46,724 bases of DNA from a virus (Duplodnaviria; Heunggongvirae; Uroviricota; Caudoviricetes). Of this stretch, positions 3,287 to 45,172 are shown one piece after another (positions within the stretch are counted from its first letter, which is position 1; every line of letters starts with the position of its first letter). The stretch is from IMG/VR virus record IMGVR_UViG_2579778634_000020. One strand, 5' to 3'. The position numbers and the translations under genes were made by a program. The notes below the pieces were generated by a model. The model did no database searches. It saw only the letters and a list, made by a program, of their open reading frames with translations, and was not told where the DNA came from.

Positions 3287-3886
3287 TCAGAATTTATAAC
3301 CGACACCAACGATGAAACTGTTGGTACGCCAGTCACCGCTGCCGGAGCCTTCATAAGCGACGTCAACGGCCACGGATTCGGTCGGGTTAAACTGCACGCC
3401 AGCTCCCCACGCCAGAGACGTGTTGCTGTGGCGACCGTCATCACTTCCGGTCAGCACATCGTGCGTTTTCCCCTTGTTGTCAGTTACGCGGATATAATCC
3501 CCGGAGAAAGTCGACACACGGCTGTAAGCCATACCCGCCATCGCATACGCGCTGAACCATTCATTCACGCGCACAGACGGCCCCGCCATCACGCTGAACC
3601 AGCGATTACGCACGGAATCCTCATGCCAGCGGGTATCGCTGTAATGCGTTTTTTGCTCATCTTCAGCGTTGGCATAACTGAATGACGTAATCAGCCCCAG
3701 CGTGTCCGTAAACTCATAACGGTATTTCACGTTAATCCCGTTCAGATTATCGCTGCCGGGAGCGTTCGTACGGGCATGAAGATACCCTGCGCTCAGTGTG
3801 GCCTGCTGCTCAGACGCCCATGCAGGCGCACCGGATACGGCCAGACAGATGGCTGCGGACAAAATGGCTGCACAAACTTTACGCAT
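3287..3886 (-). CDS. lom: Outer membrane protein Lom (Ail/Lom/PagC/OmpX family beta-barrel)
   Basis: 199 aa with a signal peptide. Near-identical to lambda Lom (MRK..AAILSAAICLAVSGAPAWAS...VGVGYKF). Confidence 0.95.
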   Translation of the reverse strand: MRKVCAAILSAAICLAVSGAPAWASEQQATLSAGYLHARTNAPGSDNLNGINVKYRYEFTDTLGLITSFSYANAEDEQKTHYSDTRWHEDSVRNRWFSVMAGPSVRVNEWFSAYAMAGMAYSRVSTFSGDYIRVTDNKGKTHDVLTGSDDGRHSNTSLAWGAGVQFNPTESVAVDVAYEGSGSGDWRTNSFIVGVGYKF

Positions 3887-3910
3887 AATTACCTCTCGCT
3901 TTTCTGCAAT

Positions 3911-3934
3911 AAAAAAGGCGCCATTTCTGGCGCC
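3911..3934 (-). terminator. Hairpin + U6 (GGCGCC-AGAAAU-GGCGCC-UUUUUU) between J and lom; putative attenuator
   Basis: Seen in sequence. Confidence 0.5.
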
Positions 3935-3953
3935 CGTATATGGGTTATAAAAT

Positions 3954-6900
3954 TCAGCTGATACTGATGCCTGCGGTGGCTTTCTTCATCACCACAACCA
4001 GCAAATCGCTGATACTTGCTGTGGGATACCAGTCATTTACCAGCCATGCTGACACCGAAAACTCCAGCGTCGTGTGACCGTGACCGGCAGGCATATCAAT
4101 AACGCCACTGTAAATCAGCGTATTATCCAGCGCGGTACGGTTATAAATTTCAGCACCGTTTTTCCGCACTATCAGACGGCATGAGGAGTAAATATCAGTA
4201 TGCTCTCTCTCATGTTTAGCGCCGCTGAATGCCACCGCCGGAATAACAATCTGCCGGTCAAACGGCTGATCGTCATAAATCCTGACGGTAATGGTCCCTG
4301 ATGGCCACCGCTCCGGTGCCCGGGAGTCCCGCGGGAAAGCCTTACCCACTGTTTTGACAATATCGCCTTCAATCTGGTTGGCTGACAGTTTCCCTTTAAT
4401 CTGACAGTTCTCATTTATCGTAACGTTGTTGAGCGTCCCGGCGTTCGCATTCACACTGCCACTGATATCCGCATTTTTAGCGGTCAGCTTTCCGTCCGGT
4501 GTCAGGGAAAAGGCCGGAGGATTGCCGCCGCTGGTAATGGTGGGGGCCGTCAGGCGCTTCAGGAACACTTCATTCATGAATATCTGATCACCCTGACCAA
4601 CAAACATCGGTTTTGTGTTGCCATTCGCAGGATTAATCATCGCAATCCTGTCTGCCGCCAGCAGCACCTGACTCTGCATGCCGTCAGGGGTGTTCTCAAT
4701 ACCGGCACCAATACCCGCGATATAAAGGCGTCCGTCCTGCATCTGCTGCAGCTTCACAGCCCACATGCTGTTCAGGTTATTATTTGTATCAACCTGAACC
4801 TTCTGTATCTGCTGAATTGCAGCACTCTGGTCTTCCAGTTTCTTATTGACGGTCTGCGTGATTTCATTGCTGACATCCGTAATGGACGTCCTGATTTCAG
4901 CCAGGTCAGGCGCAAGCTGACCGTTATCAATCTGCGTCCACAGCTCCTGAGCCAGATGGGTTTTCCCTATCTCGCCTTTGAAAAAATCCAGATAACCGGA
5001 TGCATCATCACTCGGCTGACCAACAGCCTCCACGAATGCCGATTTGCCAACGGTGTTCACACTGCGGATATAAAAGTAATAATCATGGCCCGGTTTGATA
5101 TTGATACTGGCGGCTATCCAGTACAGCGCCGTACCAAGATAGCGTGCTGTGGTTTCAACCTGCCTGATATCCGCAATCCGCTTTTCCGAGAACCAGAACT
5201 CAAACTGTACCGTCGGATCATAAACCGCAAGATGCGGCGTGGCGGTTATCTGAAAATAGCCCGGTGTCAGCTCAATCCGAGACGGCGCTGCCGGTGCGGC
5301 AATCCGGAACGATACCGATGCCGGATCGCCCTGCTGTCCCCACGCATTTACCGCCCGGACTGTCAGCCTGTAGTTCCCCAGCGCCAGTTGCGTGAAGCGG
5401 TATGTAGTTTCCGTCGTCCGGGCCGTGCTGACCAGCCGCTCACTGCCGTCATCCGCTGCCACGGTCAGGCGAAGCATAAAGCTCACCCCCTTCACCACCT
5501 TCGGCGTGTCCCAGCGCGCCAGCACCTGATATTCCCCGCTGTCTGCGGTGACTTCGGCAGTCAGGTGCTGCACCGCTGGCGGCGTGACACCATTCACCGT
5601 GCCGCTCTGGTCGCCGTCAAAGTGCGCCCCGTTATCCACGATGGCCTCTTTTTCCGGCACATGCTGCACGGCGGTGATGGCATACGTGCCGTCGTCGTTC
5701 TCACGGATACTCACGCAGCGAAACAGTCGCTGGCGCAGCGTCGGCAGCTTCAGCCCCCATACGCTGTATTCAGCAACACCGTCAGGAACACGGCTCACTT
5801 TTACCTTCACGCCGTCGGTGGCGGACTGGACCTCCACGCTGACCGGATTGCCATTTCCGTCAACCAGGCTTATCAGCGTGGTACCGGAGGATGGCAGCGT
5901 GATTTCACGGTCGAGCGTCAGCGTCCGGGTCTGGCTGTTCACCGCCAGCACGCGCCCACCGGTGCTGATACCCGCATAGTCATCATCACAGATTTCAATG
6001 ACATCGCCCGGCACATGGCGAAGCCCTTCTGCGCCCACGCTGAAGTCCACGGTCTGCGTTTCCAGCAGTTCTGTTTTAATCAGCCACAGCCCGGCGCGGT
6101 GTGCCTGCCCCCGGCTGGTACAGCCAAAGGCATCCATCTTCGTGACATTACGACCATAACGGGCAATGGCCTGCGTATCTTCAACAAGCTCTGTCGCCGT
6201 CTCCCAGCCGTTGTCCGGGTCAATCCAGTTCACCTCAACGGCATTATGGCGGACCTTCAGGGCGCTGAAACTGTAGCGGAACGGCGCGCCATCATCCGGC
6301 ATCACCACATTACTGCGGTTATAGGTCCACACCTTATCCGACGGCCGGTCCTGCACGAACGTCAGCGTCTGCCCGTTCCATACCGGCATACAGCGCATCG
6401 CCGAGCAGAAATCACTGAGCACATCCCACGCCTTACGCTGTGTGGTCAGCCAGGCATTACAGGTGATGCGCGGCTCCGTGCCGCCAAAGCCGTCCGGCAC
6501 CGACTGGTCGCAGTACTGGCCGATGACATACAGCGCCCATTTATCCACATCCGCCGCACCAAGACGTTTCCCCATGCCGTAGCGCGGGTGGGTCAGCATA
6601 TCCCACAGACACCATGCCATGTTGTTGCTGTATGCTGGCTTAAACGTTCCGTCCCAGATACCGCTGTATTGCCGCGTCTGCGGGTTATAGTTCGACGGCA
6701 CCTGCAGAATGCGCCCGCGAAGATGATAATTACGGCTCACCTGCTGGCTGCCGAACTGCTCCGAGTCCACCTGTACGCCGACCAGTGCCGTGTTCGGGTA
6801 GCACTGTTTCACATCGATGATTTCGGTGTATGACGACCAGAGCGTTTTGTTCTGCAGCTGGTCTGTGGTGCTGTCCGGCGTCATCCTGCGCATCCGGATG

Positions 6901-7433
6901 TTGAACGGGCGCGGCGGCAGGTTACCCACCACCACCGAGGCCAGATACTGCGAGGTGGTTTTGCCCTTAATGGTGATGTCTTTTTCCGTCACCCAGCCAC
7001 CGTTACGTTGTATCTGAACCAGCAGGCGGACTTCCGACGGATTCCGGTCCCCCTTTGAGGTGGTTTCCACCAGTGCCTGCACACCGAAGGTAAAGCGCAG
7101 TCGGTCGATGTTTGCCGACGTGATGGCGCGGGTGATCGGCGTGTCGTATTTCACTTCCGTACCCAGCACCGTCTCGGAGCCGGAGGATTCAAATCCCTCC
7201 GGCGGAGTCTGCTCCTGCTCACCAGCCCGGAACACCACCGTGACACCGGCGATGTTGGTATTCCCCTCACTGTCCAGCACCGGCGTACTGTTCAGCAGCA
7301 CGCTTTTTAATCCATCCACCGGACCTTCAATCGGCCCTTCACTGATGGCATCAATCACACTCAGCAACTGCGTGGATTTCAGGTTGTCCTTCGCTTCACG
7401 CGGGGTATGCCCCTTACTGCTGCCTTTACCCAT
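3954..7433 (-). CDS. J: Tail tip host-specificity protein J (central tail fiber)
   Basis: 1159 aa, collinear with and highly similar to lambda gpJ ([26 protein letters not shown]...). The C-terminal receptor-binding region diverges from lambda. Confidence 0.95.
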
Positions 7434-7493
7434 TCGTCACGCTCCATAAACGACAAAACCGCCCGCAGGCGGTTTCACATAAAACGTTTTTCA

Positions 7494-8135
7494 TCAGCGA
7501 CCAATCACCACAACCTGACCACCATCACCTTCATCTGCTGTGCTGATCTCCTGAGATACCACCCGCGACCCCACACGCATTTCACCGTACAGAACGGGCA
7601 GGACATTGCCCTGGGCAACCATATTATCCAGTGAAGAAAAATAGGTGTTCTGTTTGCCGTTATCCGTTGTCTGTGTGCGGGGGGTTTTGGGTTTAGGGGC
7701 CAGCATCTGTGCAACACCGCCAAGCGTCATACTGGCACCGAGAGAAAACAGCAGATTACTCGCCATAATTCCTACCCCCGGCATCCATATAGCAACCGCC
7801 ATAACAGCCGCCCCCAGCACAGCCTGAAACACACCGCCACTTTTGGCTCCTGCCAGACGCGGCACGATATGGATCACAGCACCATTTGCCAGCGGTTCAT
7901 TAAGACGGGCTGATAATTCCGTTTCACCTGTATCACGCCCGGCAATGCGTATCTGATACCAGCCGTCGCTCAGCTTCTGACGAAACGCCGGGATCTGCAT
8001 GGCCAGCGCCCGGATGGCTTCAGCCCCCGTTTTTACACGAAGGTCGATGCGGCGGCCAAATCGTTGTAAATCCCCGTAAAGGCAGATGCGCGCCATGCCC
8101 GGTGACGCCAGAGGGAGTGTGTGCGTCGCTGCCAT
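7494..8135 (-). CDS. I: Tail assembly protein I
   Basis: 213 aa. Same position and overlap as lambda gpI, between K and J. Confidence 0.8.
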   Translation of the reverse strand: MAATHTLPLASPGMARICLYGDLQRFGRRIDLRVKTGAEAIRALAMQIPAFRQKLSDGWYQIRIAGRDTGETELSARLNEPLANGAVIHIVPRLAGAKSGGVFQAVLGAAVMAVAIWMPGVGIMASNLLFSLGASMTLGGVAQMLAPKPKTPRTQTTDNGKQNTYFSSLDNMVAQGNVLPVLYGEMRVGSRVVSQEISTADEGDGGQVVVIGR

Positions 8136-24031: not shown

Positions 24032-24920
24032 TTGTCACCCCTATTGATATGCAGGGTGTCTTCTTCCTGTATTTTTCGTGAAGGATTTTTACTGCAGCGT
24101 TGTTCCAGGTGACCTGATGGTGAATGCGTTTATGGCTGGCACCCATCAGTGAGATTTTTACGCACGACGGCGCATACATGACGGAGTAAAAACTTTTAAC
24201 GTAGGTTCCGGAATCCAGATACAGCTCGGTCATTCCGCCGCTGTTTTTCTGCGTCTGTTTCTGCCCTAACTGGACAGCACCGATCGTCATGAACAATTCA
24301 CCACAGCGACCGAGATTCGTGTACGTATTCACATCCTCGTTAATGCGCCCCATGAATGAGAACGGTCGATCAACCGAACAGATAAAGCTGTTCATTGCCT
24401 TGCGTTTCACCCACGAAGCATGGCCGCCATTGTCACCAAGAAAATCCCCGCCCTGCGACATAGCGATGGAAAGAGCAGGTATTGATTCGTAGTACGCCAG
24501 CATTTCAGAAAGGATCGCATCCAGTTTCCTTATCGGAAAATAGGCCTGGTCATAGTTGCGATCCACCCGAAACTGGAACTCGTGATAATCATCATCGAGC
24601 TGAATGAAGTATTTACACCCGACCAGTTTTGCCAGGTCGAAACAGGCATTACGGGCGTAAAAAATTGAGCGGCGGTCACCGAAATTATCGGCTTCGTCAA
24701 AACGACTGGCGATATCGGCTTTGGAAAACACCAGCACCTGTTCACCAAATTCAGCCATGTACTGATGCCGTGTCTTATCTTCATCATCAACAACGATAAA
24801 AATTTTCCCGGTATAGCCAGCACGACGCAACGTCCGGTAAGTCAGAACTTTGTCCGGTCGCCCGTGAGTCAGAATAAAGGCGCAAAAATCATCACGCATA
24901 TTCCTCCTCCTCACCACCAT
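23967..24920 (-). CDS. Hypothetical protein with a GT-A-like glycosyltransferase signature (beta-strand/DD then DDD motif)
   Basis: FILTHGRPDKV...KIFIVVDDED ... YFIQLDDDYHEF resembles the nucleotide-diphospho-sugar transferase fold. Weak inference. Confidence 0.35.
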   Translation of the reverse strand: MVVRRRNMRDDFCAFILTHGRPDKVLTYRTLRRAGYTGKIFIVVDDEDKTRHQYMAEFGEQVLVFSKADIASRFDEADNFGDRRSIFYARNACFDLAKLVGCKYFIQLDDDYHEFQFRVDRNYDQAYFPIRKLDAILSEMLAYYESIPALSIAMSQGGDFLGDNGGHASWVKRKAMNSFICSVDRPFSFMGRINEDVNTYTNLGRCGELFMTIGAVQLGQKQTQKNSGGMTELYLDSGTYVKSFYSVMYAPSCVKISLMGASHKRIHHQVTWNNAAVKILHEKYRKKTPCISIGVTNDSVFESRVSGSVPDDCTTNR

Positions 24921-25683
24921 GCATGATCTCCACCATGCGCTGCGTCATCCGGACAAATCCATTTTCAATAGCCTGCTGATAATCAATGATCACCAGCGCC
25001 GACTCCTCGAAAAAACACTGAATTTCAGCGGGGGCGTGAGCGTAATAGTCCGCAATTCTGCTGAAATTAAACACCGTGTGACGTTCTGCCGCACACAGGA
25101 GGAATTTCTCAATATCAGGCTCAAGAGACGCCGAACGTATCCGGCTGATCAGCTCCTGAGTTTTCGTATCGTCGTACAGTTCACTGATATCCGGTTTACC
25201 GCCCGACGGCTCATAAACAGGCGTATCAATTTTCGTCGTATACGGCTCCTCCTCATTTCCTGTACCGGGCAAAACATCCGTCAACAGTTCATCAATTTCT
25301 GTCGGGATGAAGCCTGTCAGGGAGACATCAAAATCAGCATTGATTAGGTCCGACAGCTCCATCCGCAACAGATCTTCATCCCAGCCAGCATTCATCGGCA
25401 GGCGATTATCTGCCAGGCGGTACGCCTTTTTCTGCTCATCCGTCAGGCCAGACAGAACAATGACCGGAACAGAATCCATTTTGAGCATTTCAGCCGCCAT
25501 AACACGACCGTGACCCGCAATAATTTCGCCCTTTTCGTCAATCAGCACCGGATTAGTCCAGCCGAATTGCTTAATACTTTCTACCAGTTGTGCCACCTGC
25601 TCAGTACTGTGCGTCCTGGCGTTGTGCGCATACGGTGACAATTCTTGTAATGGGCGATAGACTATCTTTAATTTCTCGCTCAT
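24892..25683 (-). CDS. ParB-like nuclease domain protein (ParB/Srx N-terminal domain)
   Basis: N-terminal KIVYRPLQELSPYAHNARTHSTEQVAQLVESIKQFGWTNPVLIDEKGEIIAGHGR is typical ParB-N (GxxR). C-terminus acidic. Confidence 0.7.
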   Translation of the reverse strand: MSEKLKIVYRPLQELSPYAHNARTHSTEQVAQLVESIKQFGWTNPVLIDEKGEIIAGHGRVMAAEMLKMDSVPVIVLSGLTDEQKKAYRLADNRLPMNAGWDEDLLRMELSDLINADFDVSLTGFIPTEIDELLTDVLPGTGNEEEPYTTKIDTPVYEPSGGKPDISELYDDTKTQELISRIRSASLEPDIEKFLLCAAERHTVFNFSRIADYYAHAPAEIQCFFEESALVIIDYQQAIENGFVRMTQRMVEIMHGGEEEEYA

Positions 25684-25820: not shown

Positions 25821-27278
25821 TTAGGAGCGCCAAAAAAAACCTGAAAACAATATAATAACAGGATAAATTTCAAGGCGACCAAGAATCATAGCTATGCACA
25901 TTAAACATTTTGCAATGTCATTAAGCACTCCGAATGACGATGCAGTAGCCCCAAAACCTAATCCCATATTATTAATACATGCAGCCACTGTTGCAAATGA
26001 TGTAAGAAAATCATATCCCATACCATTTAACACCAGTATAAAAAACACCGTGAAGAGAGTATAAAGAAAAAAGAAACTCCATACAGACCTCATTACACGA
26101 TCTGTAACTATCTTCCCTCCTACATTTACACTCAACAACGCTCTGGGATGAGAAAGCTGATTTATCTCGTGTTTGCTTTGTTTGAAAAGTATAAGAAATC
26201 GAAGTGACTTAATTCCACCACAAGTTGAACCTATACATCCCCCAAAGAAACTTGACAACAGCAAAAACACTATCGTGTGCGTGGGCCAACTTGCATAATC
26301 CTGCGTAGCTAAACCATTATCAGTGAGCATGGAGCTGGCAAGAAAAAACGAATGAATAAAACTTCCATGCAAGTCATACATACCTATATGCCAGACCTGG
26401 AAAGAGGTAACAATGATCACCCCTAAGGCTATTAACAGAAAGAAACGAAGTTCAATATCTCTGATTAAAGGTTTTATCGTTTTCCTGCTAATAACAATAT
26501 ACCAAAGAGTGAAGTTGAAAGCCGATAGCAGGGAAAAAGAACCAGCCACCAGCTCAACCAAATAGTTATTAAAATATCCGATACTCTCGCTATGAGTTGA
26601 GAAACCACCAAGCGAAACTGTGGAAATCCCGTGACAAATAGCATCAAACAAAGGCATTCCTGCAAGTCTATAACAGACAATACAAGCAATACCTAATAAA
26701 GAATAAGTTATCCACAGTGTCCGTGACGTATCGGCCAGGCGGGGAGTGAGTTTGTCATCCTTAAATGGCCCCGGCATTTCTGACTGATAAAGCTTTGCAC
26801 CACCAATACCCAATAATGGCAATACAGCAACCGCCAGAACAATAACTCCTAAACCACCTATAAAATTTAACTGTGACCGATAGTACAAATATGCCCGAGG
26901 TAATGAACTAACATCATCAATTACAGTTGCTCCTGTTGTTGTTATTCCAGAAACCCCTTCAAACAGAGCATCAATGAACGTTAAATTAAGTTCTGAGTCA
27001 ATCCATAAAGGGAATGCACTAATAACAGAAAACAAAATCCAAAACATTACAATTATAATAAACCCATCACGGGTACGTAATTGAATGCCAGATTTCTTAG
27101 TTGTATACCACGCTCCGCCACCAATGCAAAAAAATATAACGAAAGTTATAAAGAAAACGAACAGGCTTTTTTCTTTATAAAACAATGCTACAACCATTGG
27201 TGGCAACATTGAAAGACTATAGAGCCAAACCAGGAACCCACACATATGAGTAACAACTCTTACATGAGATGTATTCAT
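25821..27278 (-). CDS. trkG: Trk-system K+ uptake protein TrkG (TrkH/KtrB family); prophage cargo gene. Start taken at MNTSHV.
   Basis: 485 aa polytopic membrane protein matching Rac-prophage TrkG of E. coli K-12 as I recall it. Much lower GC than the flanking phage genes. Confidence 0.9.
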   Translation of the reverse strand: MNTSHVRVVTHMCGFLVWLYSLSMLPPMVVALFYKEKSLFVFFITFVIFFCIGGGAWYTTKKSGIQLRTRDGFIIIVMFWILFSVISAFPLWIDSELNLTFIDALFEGVSGITTTGATVIDDVSSLPRAYLYYRSQLNFIGGLGVIVLAVAVLPLLGIGGAKLYQSEMPGPFKDDKLTPRLADTSRTLWITYSLLGIACIVCYRLAGMPLFDAICHGISTVSLGGFSTHSESIGYFNNYLVELVAGSFSLLSAFNFTLWYIVISRKTIKPLIRDIELRFFLLIALGVIIVTSFQVWHIGMYDLHGSFIHSFFLASSMLTDNGLATQDYASWPTHTIVFLLLSSFFGGCIGSTCGGIKSLRFLILFKQSKHEINQLSHPRALLSVNVGGKIVTDRVMRSVWSFFFLYTLFTVFFILVLNGMGYDFLTSFATVAACINNMGLGFGATASSFGVLNDIAKCLMCIAMILGRLEIYPVIILFSGFFWRS

Positions 27279-28915: not shown

Positions 28916-29077
28916 ATGTCTGAAAAAAACAAACCACAAGGTGAAAATAAACCTCAGCACCCCGTGGCACCAAAACCAACTCCAACACAAAGTACTACAG
29001 ACTTTGCTACACGTCGTGTTTTTGTTGGAGATTCTGCCGACTCAGTCATTGAACATATAAAAAAACAGCCGAGATAA
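28916..29077 (+). CDS. Small hypothetical protein (53 aa) on the plus strand, convergent with and overlapping the 3' end of the 189-aa membrane protein gene
   Basis: RBS AGAGGA 7 nt upstream. MSEKNKPQGENKPQHPVAPKPTPTQSTTDFATRRVFVGDSADSVIEHIKKQPR. Confidence 0.4.
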   Translation: MSEKNKPQGENKPQHPVAPKPTPTQSTTDFATRRVFVGDSADSVIEHIKKQPR

Positions 29078-29615
29078 ACATCGCCGCTACCGGAGCAAGG
29101 ATGGTATACATCCTTGCTTTATCGAGACTCGTGCGGATTTTCTCATTTTCCAACAGTAACTCTCTTGCTGTATCACTCAAGTCAACAAGGCGATACCTTC
29201 GTATAAGCGGCAATAACTTATCAGGTCCTAAATATCCTGCATCAGCGAATATTTTAAAGCTCGAGGGCTCCATATCCTTATATTTTTCATGATATAGATG
29301 ATCAGGAGGGGCATTGATCAGGCCCCTAACCTTCACAGATAAACCAGTACATACCAAGTAAATGGCGCACCATGTCCATAGTAATGTAAATGTGGTAATT
29401 CCGGCGGTGAGAAAATCGAAATTAGTTTTCTGTGTCAGCAATAAAAAAGATGAACCAATTCCAACAATCTGAATGTTCAGAAGTTTGTATCCATTCTCAA
29501 CATTGGTTTTGTTAGAAAGATGAATCTCTCGTATCGTCTCTTCCCCTTGTTTTTCAAGATAATCGACGAGCTCATCATCTACTCCTAAAAAATAATCTTT
29601 AGGTAGTTCTCTCAT
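29046..29615 (-). CDS. Hypothetical membrane protein (3 predicted TM segments) in the moron slot between tR' and the holin
   Basis: 189 aa. TM candidates LLNIQIVGIGSSFLLLTQ, FTLLWTWCAIYLVCTGL and ILAPVAAMFISAVFLYV. No recognisable family. Confidence 0.55.
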   Translation of the reverse strand: MRELPKDYFLGVDDELVDYLEKQGEETIREIHLSNKTNVENGYKLLNIQIVGIGSSFLLLTQKTNFDFLTAGITTFTLLWTWCAIYLVCTGLSVKVRGLINAPPDHLYHEKYKDMEPSSFKIFADAGYLGPDKLLPLIRRYRLVDLSDTARELLLENEKIRTSLDKARMYTILAPVAAMFISAVFLYVQ

Positions 29616-31265: not shown

Positions 31266-31537
31266 TTCTTAATCTCTCGATGGCGCAGCGCAGCAGATGC
31301 CAGTTGTTCAGGCTGACGTATGAAGTATAAATAAACTGGCTCCAGTGTAAAGCCCCACCTTAATGGAATAAAAACCAAACAACAGATTGCTGGGATACAA
31401 ACAACGCTTATTATTAAAAGCGGTTAAACAAATTAAATTTTAATGTTATGCAAATCTGCCAGATCACCATAATATCTCATTTGAAAACCGCTGAAATAAC
31501 AACCCTATTAGGGTTAATCATATTAAGGTGAGTAAAT

Positions 31538-31624
31538 ATGGAAAACAACAAATCTGCACATTACGTTCCTTTTTTATCTGTAATACTTTTTGTTTTATGC
31601 TGTGCGTGGGCATTATTTTTATAA
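31538..31624 (+). CDS. 28-aa hydrophobic peptide (MENNKSAHYVPFLSVILFVLCCAWALFL); candidate type I toxin-like small membrane protein
   Basis: RBS AAGGTGAG 7 nt upstream of the ATG. A single TM helix. Sits in a 766-bp AT-rich non-coding island. Confidence 0.4.
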   Translation: MENNKSAHYVPFLSVILFVLCCAWALFL

Positions 31625-31730
31625 AAATATTCACAGATAAAATATACCCGCCAAAGTTGGTTAAGTGCGGGTGCGTTGAGGATGCCTGACTCATCAGAGG
31701 TGGCGAGGGATTTCTCCCTCGCCTGGTCTC

Positions 31731-31883
31731 TCACTCCTCAGGTTCGTAAGCTGTGAAGACAGCGACCTCCGTCTGACCGGTTCGGATTTGTACCTCGCAG
31801 AAGTCTTTCCTTGTTACCAGTGCCATCACAACGACGGTAATACAGATGACAATCAGGGCGGTTAACATCGTCTTTTGCTGCAT
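31731..31883 (-). CDS. hok: Hok/Gef-family type I toxin (50 aa)
   Basis: MQQKTMLTALIVICITVVVMALVTRKDFCEVQIRTGQTEVAVFTAYEPEE closely matches Hok/Gef/RelF toxins (conserved LVTRKxLCEVRIRTGQTEVAVFTAYEPEE). Confidence 0.85.
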   Translation of the reverse strand: MQQKTMLTALIVICITVVVMALVTRKDFCEVQIRTGQTEVAVFTAYEPEE

Positions 31884-32000
31884 CACAGCCTACTTACCCT
31901 TACCTTTCGTTCAAGCGGTAAGGTCACTTTTTCTGTTGTGTGCTAACCAACAAACCTCTTTTATCTGCATTAAAAATCGTTATCATGTCATCCTCAACCT
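31884..32000. promoter_or_regulatory. hok leader region expected to carry the mok overlapping frame and the antisense Sok RNA gene
   Basis: By analogy with the hok/sok loci. The minus-strand upstream sequence contains a GTG-initiated frame ending at TGATG overlapping the hok start. Confidence 0.35.
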
Positions 32001-32031
32001 GTTAATAGCCTATTATGGACTTTAGTAAACA

Positions 32032-33861
32032 ATGAGCACTTCCGCATACAAGAGCAAAATTCGAACACTCCAGTGCGCGTTAAAAAACGGTGAATTTGAA
32101 CCATTCATACAACATATCCGTTTTCCATACTTTAAAAATATAGAGCAGAATGCAAGGATCGATTTTCAGTTCCCTATAACGGCTTTAGTAGGAAAAAATG
32201 GAACTAATAAAAGTTCTGTTATCAAAGCGCTATTTGGTTGCCCACATGGTAAAAATATAACTCGTTATTGGTTCACAACTGAAACAGATGAGTTTCCTGA
32301 CCTAAAACTTGCTGATGGCAGTTCTCTTAAACCTAGATATATATATGGATATAAAAATGCTGATGGCCGTTTAGTTGAAATACTCCAAGCACGTATCAAT
32401 GCTACCAAGAAAACAATCGATTATTGGGAAACAAGTCGACCATCTGTTGGTGATAACATGGAGAGTATTTCGGATGATCTGGGTGCTAATAGTAATGCAA
32501 CCAGATGGAAAAAAATCAAGAAGGGATTGGTTTTCCTAGATTTCAGATCGGAAATAAGTGCATTTGATAGATGTATGTATCACTCTGATTTTAAATTAAG
32601 AAAGAAGAAGAGTGGTGTATTAATTACAAAGCAAGACTATATCAGAAGCAAATCTAAATATATAAAGAAAGCTTTTGATGAAAAGCTAAGTAATTTAAGA
32701 CTCTGGGGGGCGGAAACCATTGTTAAAAATATAACCTTGGCGCCAGAACTAGTTGAGCACGTCTCATTTATATTAGGGAAAAAATATAAAGTCATTAAAT
32801 TTCTTGAGCATCGGTTATTTGGAACCAGAGGAGGAACCGCTTTACTTTCAACTGATAAGTTGAACTATACAGAAGCGTTTGCTGGAAGTGGTGAATTTGC
32901 AATAGTTTCACTAATACTCAATATTTATTCGGCCAAACCTAATTCATTAATTCTTCTTGACGAACCAGAAGTTTCACTTCACCCTGGTGCACAAAAAAGG
33001 ATGATGGATGTTCTGTACTCTATTGTTGAGCAGAAAAAACATCAAGTGGTAATATCAACCCATTCTCCTGTTATTGTGAACACTCTTCCCAAAGATGCCA
33101 TTAAATTATTTGTTTTTGATGAAGAGAGTGAAACAGCTAAAATAGTTCAAAATATAGCACCGGATGAAGCTTTTATAGAGCTAGGGCATGATATTAACAA
33201 GAAAACAATAATTGTAGAAGATAAATTAGCTAAAGCAATTATAGATAAAGCGATTAAAAATGATGAAAGATTAAGCTTATCATTTAGTGTAAGTTATATA
33301 CCAGGTGGTTCGGAGACCATTTTAAGCAAGCATCTTCCCAGTTACGCTGTGGTAGAACGCAATGATATTTTGTTTTTACTTGATGGTGATAAAAACAAAA
33401 AAATAAAACCAGTAAGAATTAGTGAAATTGCTGATGCTGATTTAGTTAATACAATGTGCAAATATTATGGTTGCGAGTTAATTATCAATGCCAGTGGTAG
33501 TAATGGCAAAAAAAATGAACAAGAATCTAATAGACTCAAAAGGCAAGTGCTTGAGTATGCATTCAATAAAGTGCAGTATTTACCATTTGATACTCCCGAA
33601 CAATTACTCATTGAAAAGGCAATTACGCCAAGTGAAAAAGAAATAATTGATTCACAGACCTGGAGTTCTAATGATCCAGAACTGTATAAGAATCAAATAA
33701 GATTATTAGCGCAACACCTGTATGATAAAGAAGAAGTAAATGCAGAGGAAATTTTTTGCCTCCAACAAATGATGACCGCAAGACTTAAAAATGAATTGCC
33801 TGAATTTATAAAAATAAGAAAAATAATTACTCAGGCTCTTGACCGTGGTATCATTAGGTAG
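32032..33861 (+). CDS. OLD-family nuclease-like protein: N-terminal ABC/AAA_21-type ATPase + C-terminal Toprim domain
   Basis: Walker A VGKNGTNKSS; Walker B/D-loop LILLDEPEVSLHP; H-loop VVISTHSP; C-terminal Toprim-like IIVEDKLAK (conserved Glu) and FLLDGDKN (DxD). 609 aa, close to P2 Old (586 aa). About 33% GC versus roughly 50% in the flanks. Confidence 0.75.
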   Translation: MSTSAYKSKIRTLQCALKNGEFEPFIQHIRFPYFKNIEQNARIDFQFPITALVGKNGTNKSSVIKALFGCPHGKNITRYWFTTETDEFPDLKLADGSSLKPRYIYGYKNADGRLVEILQARINATKKTIDYWETSRPSVGDNMESISDDLGANSNATRWKKIKKGLVFLDFRSEISAFDRCMYHSDFKLRKKKSGVLITKQDYIRSKSKYIKKAFDEKLSNLRLWGAETIVKNITLAPELVEHVSFILGKKYKVIKFLEHRLFGTRGGTALLSTDKLNYTEAFAGSGEFAIVSLILNIYSAKPNSLILLDEPEVSLHPGAQKRMMDVLYSIVEQKKHQVVISTHSPVIVNTLPKDAIKLFVFDEESETAKIVQNIAPDEAFIELGHDINKKTIIVEDKLAKAIIDKAIKNDERLSLSFSVSYIPGGSETILSKHLPSYAVVERNDILFLLDGDKNKKIKPVRISEIADADLVNTMCKYYGCELIINASGSNGKKNEQESNRLKRQVLEYAFNKVQYLPFDTPEQLLIEKAITPSEKEIIDSQTWSSNDPELYKNQIRLLAQHLYDKEEVNAEEIFCLQQMMTARLKNELPEFIKIRKIITQALDRGIIR

Positions 33862-34925
33862 TGATTCTGGATGCAGAGGGAAAAATGAAAAAAATCAAAG
33901 TGTTTGACTTCTTTTCCGGTTGTGGTGGAACCAGCCAAGGTTTCCATCAAGCTGGAATGGATATTGTTTTTGGCCTCGATTTCGACGTTGATGCAGCCAG
34001 TTCATTTCGTGCAAATTTCCCGCAGGCTGCTTTTATTAACTCGGACATTAGGTTAATCGACAACAATGCCATAAACAAGTTAGTAAAAAAACATCGTAAT
34101 GATTACATTCTTTTTTCAGGATGTGCGCCTTGTCAACCGTACTCTAAGCAAAACTCAAATAAGAAAAATGATGATCCACGATTAGATCTATTAAAGGAAT
34201 TCAGTCGCTTTGTAGAGCATTATATGCCTGATTTTATTTTTGTTGAAAACGTGCCAGGAATGCAAAAGTTTAACAAAAATGAAGGAACATTCATGATGTT
34301 TTTAGAAATGCTTTCATCAAAGGGATATAGTGTAGATTATAAAGTAATGCCAGCTGCGTGGTACGGTGTACCACAGACGCGAGAAAGATTAGTGCTCATT
34401 GCATCCAAGGATTTTTATGTCGCATTGCCTTCTCCTACACATGGGGTTGGAAATACTCCCTATTCAACAGTAAAGGACTGGATCGCTAATTTACCGAAGA
34501 TAGAAGCAGGAGAAAAGCATAATAGTATTCCTGATCATGAAGCTGCACGCTTATCAGAGCTTAATTTACGTAGAATAAAATGCACTCCTGAAGGTGGAAG
34601 TCGAGAATTTTGGCCAGATGAATTGATTTTAGAATGCCATCGTAACCATAAAGGGCATACAGACGTATATGGACGTTTGAGTTGGGACAAACCAGCCAGC
34701 GGACTAACAACTCGTTGTATTAGCTATTCAAATGGACGTTTTGGACATCCAACACAAAATCGAGCAATATCGGTTCGTGAAGCAGCGTGTCTACAAACAT
34801 TTCCTTTGGATTATAAATTTATTGGTTCTTTGCAATCTCGGGCTCGTCAAATAGGAAATGCGGTCCCTCCGAAGATGTCTGAAACGATTGGAAAACATTT
34901 GCTTAATATAATCAAAGCCTCCTAG
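33861..34925 (+). CDS. DNA (cytosine-5)-methyltransferase. The ORF-track start is a GTG overlapping the upstream TAG; the probable start is ATG 33885 (MKKIKVFDFFSGCGG) with RBS AGGGA.
   Basis: Motif I FFSGCGG, motif IV GCAPCQPYS (catalytic Cys), motif VI ENVPGM, motif X QIGNAVPP. Confidence 0.9.
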   Translation: MILDAEGKMKKIKVFDFFSGCGGTSQGFHQAGMDIVFGLDFDVDAASSFRANFPQAAFINSDIRLIDNNAINKLVKKHRNDYILFSGCAPCQPYSKQNSNKKNDDPRLDLLKEFSRFVEHYMPDFIFVENVPGMQKFNKNEGTFMMFLEMLSSKGYSVDYKVMPAAWYGVPQTRERLVLIASKDFYVALPSPTHGVGNTPYSTVKDWIANLPKIEAGEKHNSIPDHEAARLSELNLRRIKCTPEGGSREFWPDELILECHRNHKGHTDVYGRLSWDKPASGLTTRCISYSNGRFGHPTQNRAISVREAACLQTFPLDYKFIGSLQSRARQIGNAVPPKMSETIGKHLLNIIKAS

Positions 34926-34958
34926 GAGGCTTTATTTTATTGTTATCCCCCCTAGTAG

Positions 34959-44796: not shown

Positions 44797-44991
44797 ATGA
44801 GATATGACAATGTTAAACCATGTCCATTTTGTGGTTGTCCATCAGTAACGGTGAAAGACATTTCAGGATATTACCGGGCAAAATGCAACGGATGCGAATC
44901 CCGAACTGGCTATGGTGGAAGTGAAAAAGAAGCGCTCGAAAGATGGAATAAACGAACCACTGAAAATATTAATGGAGGCGTTCATGTATAA
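44797..44991 (+). CDS. ralR: RalR (Lar) restriction-alleviation protein / type I TA toxin (64 aa from MRYDNVKP)
   Basis: MRYDNVKPCPFCGCPSVTVKDISGYYRAKCNGCESRTGYGGSEKEALERWNKR... matches RalR. Confidence 0.9.
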   Translation: MRYDNVKPCPFCGCPSVTVKDISGYYRAKCNGCESRTGYGGSEKEALERWNKRTTENINGGVHV

Positions 44992-45172
44992 AATTACCGC
45001 TACAATTGAAAAGGAAGGTGGCACTCCTACTAACTGGACAAGATATTCAAAATCTAAACTAACGAAATCAGAATGCGAAAAAATGCTCTCAGGTAAAAAA
45101 GAAGCAGGCGTTTCCAGAGAGCAGAAAGTAAAACTGATAAATTTTAATTGCGAGAAACTTCAGTCCTCGTGA
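44972..45172 (+). CDS. ydaC: YdaC (DUF1187) small protein
   Basis: ...MYKITATIEKEGGTPTNWTRYSKSKLTKSECEKMLSGKKEAGVSREQKVKLINFN... The start codon is uncertain (44972 or 44984); the ORF-track start at 44912 overlaps ralR. Confidence 0.6.
   Translation: MEAFMYKITATIEKEGGTPTNWTRYSKSKLTKSECEKMLSGKKEAGVSREQKVKLINFNCEKLQSS

Follow-up and report, generated by a model that had tools for sequence, protein, structure and literature searches.

Positions 32,032 to 34,925 of the Caudoviricetes record IMGVR_UViG_2579778634_000020 (46,724 nucleotides, read on one strand; this whole stretch is called the window below) were found to carry a cassette of two genes, the first for a predicted nuclease in which an ABC ATPase is joined to a Toprim domain and the second for a C5-cytosine DNA methyltransferase. 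The nuclease and methyltransferase genes are a conserved unit. The nuclease is, on the evidence of sequence comparison and structure modelling, a divergent ABC ATPase-Toprim protein of the OLD clade with HEC-04 as its nearest known relative. The explanation that was rated somewhat better than even is that the pair is a prophage-borne, methylation-gated, ATP-dependent defence module that resembles restriction-modification and probably also works in addiction. It is from the comparisons described here that we infer the restriction-modification-like logic, the nuclease activity, its substrate, its dependence on methylation and its role in phage defence.

Conservation of the gene pair

Linkage of the two genes was evident from a genome scan, limited to one genome per species, in which 250 relatives of the nuclease were found and the best 80 loci were analysed. 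These loci came from Gamma-, Beta- and Alphaproteobacteria, Actinomycetota, Bacteroidota, Bacillota, Acidobacteriota, Myxococcota, Planctomycetota, Patescibacteria and others. A C5 methyltransferase gene lay on the same strand within 2.5 kb in 70 of the 80 loci, being directly adjacent to the nuclease gene in 57 (downstream in 42 and upstream in 15) and separated from it by a third gene in a further 13. Six of the 80 were without a methyltransferase gene, and a contig end cuts four of these six. The spacing was 0–27 nt on the same strand, inside and outside prophages and across phyla. In an independent scan of viral contigs, 60 of 64 cases had a methyltransferase gene on one strand or the other at a distance of no more than 2.5 kb, and three of the other four were cut. 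The reverse search gave an OLD-like nuclease gene directly upstream of each of four methyltransferase homologues (4/4) that had been picked by methyltransferase similarity alone (60–63% identity; Klebsiella, Burkholderia, Pasteurella and Pseudomonas syringae). These counts bear out the original prediction, made from the sequence of the window by itself, that the two genes would be partners elsewhere as well. Moreover, pairwise identities of the nucleases correlated with those of the methyltransferases (r = 0.56 over 2211 pairs).

The nuclease family was discrete and moderate in size, comprising 374 clusters at 50% identity (E up to 1e-30; 1.84 billion representatives). Within E. coli, the version of the pair found in the window was present in 32 of 5426 complete genomes, all copies being chromosomal and at least 99% identical, and a second version, 39% identical, was present in eight genomes.

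Predicted nuclease and methyltransferase

All of the motifs for which the 609-residue product had been described as a complete ABC ATPase were present in the translation (Table 1), and the protein matched AAA_21 (1.8e-20), AAA_15 (3.6e-20) and SMC_N of Pfam over the ABC-type ATPase part only. No Toprim model of Pfam or NCBIfam was matched, and no NCBIfam model reached its cutoff. Among the Pfam families named beforehand as those to expect, AAA_21, AAA_15 and, for the partner protein, DNA_methylase were thus recovered, whereas Toprim was not. The best PADLOC profile was HEC-04 (1.7e-34), with residues 232-459 placed on positions 160-383 of 494, an alignment that spans the region from the ABC signature through the Toprim glutamate and DxD. 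The second was the ATPase-Toprim profile of type I-B retrons (2.8e-26, residues 41-464), while the PADLOC models for Old, GajA, PtuA and AriA aligned with the Walker B/H-loop region alone. Residues K60, D310, E311, H344, E396, D397, D451, G452, D453 and K553 were invariant in 77 homologues that were 32–63% identical, and E523 was kept in 76 of the 77. The Toprim residues fall in the segments IIVEDK (residues 393-398) and LLDGDKN (residues 449-455) that had been singled out in the original prediction.

Modelled in isolation with an alignment of homologue fragments from a homology search, the C-terminal domain showed the canonical Toprim order of strands and helices, strand 1 leading to E396 and strand 3 to D451-G-D453, and its best structural matches were the Toprim domains of OLD proteins and AriB, at modest fold scores. 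The AlphaFold model of the whole protein (predicted local distance difference test score, pLDDT, 82.6) gave TsOLD (6p74, E 6e-13, full length) and GajA as the best PDB matches, and PtuA and SMC heads ranked below these. A profile of the C-terminal domain run against PDB sequences gave chance matches only and no Toprim protein, and hhalign of the family with P2 Old aligned residues 300-351 (Walker B to H-loop) and nothing else. Because Pfam and NCBIfam models are silent, the Toprim assignment rests on the invariant residues, on the HEC-04 and retron profiles and on the folds. The Toprim domain proposed originally, with its Glu and DxD, was supported, while its description as P2 Old-type was overstated, HEC-04 being the nearer relative. 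One further feature of the ATPase model was a loop at residues 75-86 with pLDDT below 50, the sole long loop of low confidence, which includes the invariant W-F-x-T-x-x-D motif; this loop, in an insert of the ATPase, is a candidate contact site for a partner protein or DNA.

The second gene had been called a canonical m5C methyltransferase, and so it proved: FSGCG, PCQ and ENV motifs were all present, and PF00145 (DNA_methylase) matched at 5.3e-61 over 322 of 324 profile positions, which indicates that the catalytic motifs are complete. MTase_II of PADLOC (1.4e-96) and TIGR00675 were also matched, as were the DruM and DrmMII profiles, and the closest solved structures were catalytic domains of DNMT1, followed by bacterial enzymes. 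A Klebsiella methyltransferase that is 63% identical carries the source label 'M.HgiDII' (GTCGAC), a label that is to be taken as a lead and not as a result; site counts in the window were uninformative.

The original prediction of an overlapping stop and start depends on a mechanically called GTG at 33861, which would give a protein of 354 residues. The ATG at 33885, which gives 346 residues, was preferred because AGAGGG precedes it, because RefSeq annotates it and because 346 residues is the usual length in the homologue cluster. With this start, the two genes are probably 23 nt apart and do not overlap, but they still form a tight operon.

Target recognition and proposed mechanism

Among 42 two-gene modules of the same type as that in the window, identity to the window proteins was 50–72% for the methyltransferase as opposed to 33–63% for the nuclease. 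The best-conserved part of the methyltransferase was its target-recognition region, with per-site identities of 0.61–0.87 over residues 221-300, and this conservation suggests that the 42 modules probably recognise one common target. Across the whole nuclease family, in contrast, the partners fell into at least eight methyltransferase clusters below 48% identity, all of these partners having been detected by similarity to a C5 query. Similarity of the nucleases was 0.41 within and 0.36 between methyltransferase clusters, and the insert residues W80, F81, T83, D86, R121, E133, R158, F171, R172, D179, R205, Y252 and H260 were constant across methyltransferase types. Fixed insert residues together with at least eight methyltransferase lineages suggest that the target sequence would not be read by the nuclease itself. 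It can be argued from these alignments either that recognition comes from the methyltransferase, as it does from Mod or HsdM/S, or that the nuclease generically senses the methyltransferase or the state of C5 methylation. An arrangement like that of Type I and Type III systems is favoured over two independent readers of DNA because the partner lineages vary and the nuclease insert is fixed.

The mechanism proposed for the pair is as follows. The C5 methyltransferase would place its mark on the DNA of host and prophage, always at one short sequence. The ABC ATPase-Toprim protein would act as an oligomer, like other OLD-family enzymes, and binding and hydrolysis of ATP would license its two-metal Toprim active site (E396, D451, D453, E523 and K553). 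The licensed site would then attack unmarked DNA, for example that of a superinfecting phage. The nuclease would probably be in complex with the methyltransferase, which would supply sequence recognition in the manner of a Type I or Type III system.

Several observations weigh against this explanation. Intact nuclease genes without a methyltransferase gene within about 6 kb were noted at three loci (L043, L065 and L145), and in one metagenome-assembled genome (L030) a split methyltransferase gene lies beside an intact nuclease gene. Some of the comparative data point towards variants of the explanation, in particular the existence of at least eight methyltransferase lineages and the occurrence of a complete HpaII system or a GHKL-HEPN protein at some loci. 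Thus, in two Bacteroidota loci (L067 and L069, about 3800-7760) an HpaII-like methyltransferase gene is followed by the gene for R.HpaII (PF09561, 1e-132) and then by the OLD-like gene; with a complete HpaII system present, the nuclease at these loci is not the sole restriction activity linked to the methyltransferase. Distant relatives (33–37% identity, mostly from Bacteroidota) lie in larger operons that contain a methyltransferase, a GHKL-Hypoth_Ymh HEPN protein, the OLD-like gene and Vsr, the last of which typically accompanies C5 methylation systems. The GHKL-HEPN protein of such relatives is treated as a putative restriction subunit in REBASE-based work, where a survey lists the GHKL-Ymh architecture as the putative restriction subunit R.NmeAIP, and GHKL-HEPN (paraMORC-HEPN) protein has been put forward as a PrrC analogue by Anantharaman et al. 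In addition, HEC-04 needs no methyltransferase for its defence (Payne et al., bioRxiv 10.1101/2024.01.29.577857), and for the Toprim effectors of P2 Old and PARIS the reported substrate is tRNA rather than DNA.

At L065, one of the loci that lack a methyltransferase gene, the OLD-like gene was noted beside a gene with an AspBHI N-terminal domain (4762-5475, minus strand). AspBHI is a methylcytosine-dependent restriction enzyme, an activity that would clash with a C5 methyltransferase.

A frameshifted nuclease gene next to an intact methyltransferase gene was seen in several assemblies of one E. coli lineage (L094 3001-4831 and L095 287-2117), the frameshift splitting the nuclease inside the Toprim region into 495 and 119 or 124 residues. 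A lineage in which the nuclease is dead and the methyltransferase intact fits the usual decay of restriction systems, but the pattern is only anecdotal because the opposite case occurs once (L030).

Alternative explanations

Reports of tRNA cleavage by related effectors raise a variant in which the methyltransferase is still the sequence reader, as a subunit of a complex, but the Toprim effector cuts tRNA, so that a DNA mark gates an abortive-infection RNase. This variant was considered doubtful. If it is true, the OLD proteins would gain a fifth class, coupled to a methyltransferase, and self would be told from non-self in a new way, with restriction-like sensing and abortive killing.

Less remote, and the main rival though still judged unlikely, is a guard or abortive-infection role, in which the ABC ATPase-Toprim protein would be a suicide effector akin to PrrC, PARIS or P2 Old and would be restrained by the methyltransferase, which would serve as bait or antitoxin and not primarily to mark self against DNA cleavage. 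Restraint could be by protein contact or by methylation state and would be released when a phage disturbs methylation or restriction; the target may be tRNA. Such a role accords with what is known of the OLD clade, whose members include sensors that trigger abortive effectors as well as P2 Old and PARIS, which are reported to cut tRNA, and a backup effector role has been described for OLD-ABC modules next to BREX and restriction-modification loci. It accords equally with the relatives noted above that adjoin a complete HpaII system or the paraMORC-HEPN protein proposed as a PrrC analogue, with the pairing of at least eight partner methyltransferase lineages with fixed nuclease residues and with the position of the invariant WFxTxxD motif in a flexible loop. 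However, the majority two-gene form contains no restriction enzyme to be guarded, and a methyltransferase alone is no defence. Moreover, no part of the methyltransferase is better conserved than its target-recognition region, a constraint for which mere bait would have no need.

It is very improbable that the two genes are independent cargo, namely an orphan phage methyltransferase with an anti-restriction or epigenetic role and a stand-alone exclusion protein of the Class-1-like OLD or HEC-04 type. HEC-04 and P2 Old do function as single genes, orphan methyltransferases are common in lambdoid prophages (e.g., the Dam gene in the L082 prophage of E. coli) and a few nuclease genes have no methyltransferase nearby; against this, same-strand linkage at 0–27 nt extends over Proteobacteria, Actinomycetota, Bacteroidota, Bacillota and others, inside and outside prophages, and is reciprocal, and both proteins co-diversify. 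Equally hard to credit is maintenance of methylated DNA, in which the ATPase-nuclease and the methyltransferase, joined in relatives by Vsr and a MutL-like GHKL ATPase, would process lesions or mismatches that arise from cytosine methylation instead of serving defence: distant relatives do have Vsr and a MutL/MORC-type GHKL ATPase as neighbours, and ABC ATPases include the mismatch sensor MutS, but the two-gene modules lack a Vsr or GHKL partner, occupy prophage moron slots and defence contexts and have a defence protein, HEC-04, as the nearest characterised relative of their nuclease.

Genomic location and contexts

The window consists of E. coli chromosome (paa, tynA, ldhA, nifJ, ompN and sitABCD) followed by a Rac-type prophage that extends up to intR beside ttcA. 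As had been noted originally, the cassette runs against the transcriptional direction of its surroundings, its two plus-strand open reading frames lying amid prophage genes that are all on the minus strand: DUF1133, DUF1364, DUF1367 and hok/gef on one flank and DUF977, DUF1627, ydaV, ydaU, ydaT and ydaS on the other. No genes besides the nuclease and methyltransferase genes were found between the prophage genes at the cassette, either in the list of open reading frames or in the RefSeq annotation, and in RefSeq the products of an identical E. coli locus are named 'ATP-dependent nuclease' and 'DNA cytosine methyltransferase'. The low G+C content ascribed to the cassette was evident as well, being 35.9% (34.1% for the nuclease gene and 39.0% for the methyltransferase gene) compared with 49–50% in the flanking prophage genes. 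Coordinates of the features are collected in Table 1.

Table 1. Features of the cassette and its borders, by position in the window
Feature	Position	Strand	Basis or remark
hok/gef toxin gene abutting the nuclease gene	31731-31886	-	PF01848, 1.7e-21
Upstream intergenic region, hok/gef to nuclease gene	31887-32031	+	Sequence read; presumed promoter site
Gene for 609-aa ABC ATPase-Toprim (OLD-like) predicted nuclease	32032-33861	+	Open reading frame; Pfam; PADLOC; fold matches; RefSeq name
Walker A VGKNGTNKSS, residues 53-62, K60 invariant	32188-32217	+	Translation, alignment
W-F-x-T-x-x-D motif, residues 80-86, invariant	32269-32289	+	Alignment of 77 sequences; model confidence
ABC signature-like AGSGE (residues 284-288) through Walker B LILLDEPE (residues 306-313)	32881-32970	+	Translation, alignment
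H-loop STHSP, residues 342-346, H344 invariant	33055-33069	+	Translation, alignment
Divergent Toprim domain, about residues 389-553	33196-33690	+	Motifs, profiles, model
Putative metal-binding/catalytic residues E396; D451-G-D453; E523; K553	33217-33219; 33382-33390; 33598-33600; 33688-33690	+	
Shine-Dalgarno-like AGAGGG(G), 5 nt 5' of methyltransferase ATG	33873-33879	+	Sequence read
Gene for 346-aa C5-cytosine DNA methyltransferase	33885-34925	+	Pfam, PADLOC, TIGR00675, RefSeq start
Methyltransferase motif I FSGCG	33912-33926	+	
Methyltransferase PCQ motif	34128-34136	+	
Methyltransferase ENV motif	34245-34253	+	
Methyltransferase target-recognition region	about 34422-34769	+	Conservation
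Bidirectional intrinsic-terminator hairpin AAAGCCTCC-TA-GGAGGCTTT with T-run	34914-34940	+	Between convergent methyltransferase and DUF977 genes

The terminator hairpin 3' of the methyltransferase gene is perfect. At the other end of the cassette, the 145-bp gap before the nuclease gene presumably holds the promoter, and a consensus scan of this gap gave no plus-strand sigma-70 site. The leader of hok, which is the expected place of mok and Sok, must fall in the same gap; no Rfam match to a Sok RNA was obtained beside hok even at E up to 1. A second type I element, the RalR/RalA toxin-antitoxin pair of Rac, is about 10 kb away from the cassette; its antitoxin is the small RNA RalA (44990-45168, minus strand; Rfam RF02694, 218 bits). 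Consequently, the cassette is not bounded by type I loci on both sides, and the flanking toxin loci of the original prediction were confirmed on the side of hok/gef, which abuts the nuclease gene, but not for RalR/RalA.

Proteobacterial pairs, including those of enterobacteria, were in prophages at the usual sites of lysogen-expressed cargo. Thus, in E. coli and Klebsiella the pair is on the opposite strand in the interval from Q to the lysis genes; it adjoins the integrase gene in Serratia and Burkholderia, and is directly 3' of a cI-like repressor gene, on the same strand, in Pasteurella and P. syringae. From these slots, and from the cassette's own terminator, opposite orientation and low G+C content, we infer that it is prophage moron cargo expressed in the lysogen, and the occupation of classical moron slots agrees with the earlier description of mobile defence cargo. 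No DNA or protein relative was detected among 50,697 deposited phage genomes, and a plasmid collection gave a single distant match, from Clostridium.

The second E. coli version (L082 and L085, 6481-11199) was located between the antiterminator gene Q and genes for TerB, DUF3927 and a NanS-like esterase that precede the lysis genes, a slot that we take to be the one in which Stx phages carry toxin genes. In another E. coli prophage (L094), a Fic-domain gene and a 59-residue open reading frame are inserted between DUF1367 and hok (L094 1799-2482). This prophage keeps the block of hok, nuclease, methyltransferase, DUF977 and DUF1627, and the window is without the Fic gene and the 59-residue frame in the corresponding place (31266-31730), which indicates that the DUF1367-hok junction is a variable cargo site. 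Elsewhere in the window, an open reading frame of 189 residues (29046-29615, minus strand) that is annotated only as hypothetical and has no Pfam match may be a further moron; it lies in a patch of about 40% G+C, with the lysis genes to one side and the Q-like DUF1133 gene to the other. The prophage itself is a remnant, with a low-G+C trkG gene (25821-27278) and a truncated tail-fibre-assembly pseudogene (about 24200-25000) directly beside the iron/manganese transporter genes sitABCD.

Implications

For the question of how stand-alone and Gabija OLD ATPase-nucleases discriminate self from non-self, a branch with a nearly constant C5 methyltransferase partner suggests a concrete answer, namely an epigenetic mark. 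If the nuclease is a restriction component, then Toprim would join the folds of restriction enzymes and the ABC ATPase would join the motors of nucleoside triphosphate (NTP)-dependent restriction-modification; if it is instead a guard, the pair would be a minimal, two-gene case of a methyltransferase serving as bait. There is also a point for annotation, in that a module which is found in about 370 clusters (at 50% identity) and which takes up prophage slots usual for lysogenic-conversion genes has probably been overlooked.

Relationship to known defence and restriction systems

As in other members of the OLD family, an ABC ATPase with Walker A, signature, Walker B and H-loop was found in the N-terminal part of the nuclease and a Toprim Glu and DxD in the C-terminal part; a Toprim region detectable by sequence profiles was not found with Pfam, NCBIfam, a PDB profile search or hhalign against P2 Old. 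HEC-04 (PADLOC 'Hma-embedded candidate 04') is an ATPase-TOPRIM protein that gives E. coli protection against phages. Its induction is toxic, and its activity is lost in a K62A mutant as well as in an E319A/D375A/D377A mutant (Payne et al., bioRxiv 10.1101/2024.01.29.577857). The nuclease of the window is like HEC-04 in having ABC ATPase and TOPRIM in one polypeptide, with a spacing of K60, E396, D451 and D453 that matches that of K62, E319, D375 and D377. It differs in that HEC-04 is a single-gene system with no dedicated methyltransferase and with about 494 profile positions, only 160-383 of which were aligned, and in that the protein of the window has about 115 additional residues, mainly as inserts in the ATPase. 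Membership of HEC-04 was rejected, given that there is no full-length profile match and that the gene is paired with a methyltransferase gene.

Similar likenesses and differences were noted for the established OLD classes. P2 Old and the Class 1 protein TsOLD share the order of ABC ATPase followed by Toprim, TsOLD being the top full-length fold match, and are likewise comparable as lysogenic-conversion cargo of a prophage. Sequence likeness to P2 Old, however, is confined to the Walker B/H-loop region, the PADLOC Old model reaching 58 bits over 56 residues, and the reported activity of P2 Old is cleavage of tRNA in response to DNA structures. Class 1, which by definition has no conserved neighbour, was rejected in view of the methyltransferase genes near 70 of 80 genome and 60 of 64 viral loci. 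GajA of Gabija (Class 2) is also an OLD-type ATPase-Toprim protein of a two-gene defence operon and is among the top folds, but its partner is the UvrD-like helicase GajB as opposed to a C5 methyltransferase; Gabija was rejected since there is no UvrD/PcrA-like helicase in the cassette and since GajA models cover only about 70 residues (Walker B/H-loop). The 'OLD family nuclease' of the PluTI paper belongs to a Gabija pair that adjoins an unrelated system and not to the present pair. The ATPase-Toprim effector of type I-B retrons (Eco8-like, Class 3) gave the second-best PADLOC profile; this assignment was rejected because no reverse transcriptase is annotated, because RalA is the only Rfam match in the window and because the NCBIfam Eco8 model scored 30 bits against a cutoff of 250.

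Among other defence systems, PARIS was rejected because its Toprim is a separate protein and only the generic ABC region matches, MADS because the match is again limited to that region, and Druantia type II and DISARM class 2 because the methyltransferase alone matches, DruE and DrmA/DrmB being absent from the locus. In relation to guards of the PrrC/RloC or PARIS type, no restriction enzyme was found in the window, and relatives adjoin a complete HpaII system or a GHKL-HEPN protein.

The pair is like restriction-modification systems in that a single operon, carried by mobile elements, encodes both a methyltransferase and a predicted nuclease, in that Vsr is present in relatives and in that the nuclease can be lost to decay with the methyltransferase intact. 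It is unlike them in that the predicted nuclease is an ABC ATPase-Toprim protein and in that there is no superfamily 2 (SF2) helicase or McrB-type GTPase motor; LlaJI and BsuMI are NTP-dependent restriction-modification systems linked to C5 methyltransferases. The methyltransferase has the complete catalytic motifs of a Type II system, whereas a recognised restriction-enzyme fold (PD-(D/E)XK, HNH, GIY-YIG, PLD or half-pipe) was rejected, the predicted nuclease domain being Toprim. The words Toprim and ABC are absent from the 2008 fold classification of Type II restriction enzymes. Type I and Type III systems, defined by an SF2 motor, a PD-(D/E)XK nuclease and an N6-adenine methyltransferase, were rejected because the motor here is an ABC ATPase and the methyltransferase modifies C5 of cytosine. 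R.HgiDII and R.NmeAIP (GHKL paraMORC type) are comparable as ATPase-containing proteins in the place of a restriction gene beside a C5 methyltransferase gene, but their ATPase is GHKL rather than ABC, they lack Toprim and the window is without a GHKL gene.

PADLOC 2.0 contained no family with the nuclease as a full-length member, and the methyltransferase was matched only by generic methyltransferase models. Since no PADLOC 2.0 model covers the length of the nuclease, the module is probably missed by current defence annotation. Methyltransferases are never mentioned in a 2023 review of OLD nucleases. The pair was undescribed in the literature searched, PADLOC 2.0, NCBIfam and the definitions of the OLD classes, although there may be an earlier computational mention, and the original placement outside described defence families therefore stands. 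By these comparisons, the module appears to join a nuclease of the OLD clade to a C5 methyltransferase of its own, and it is widespread and seemingly new to description.

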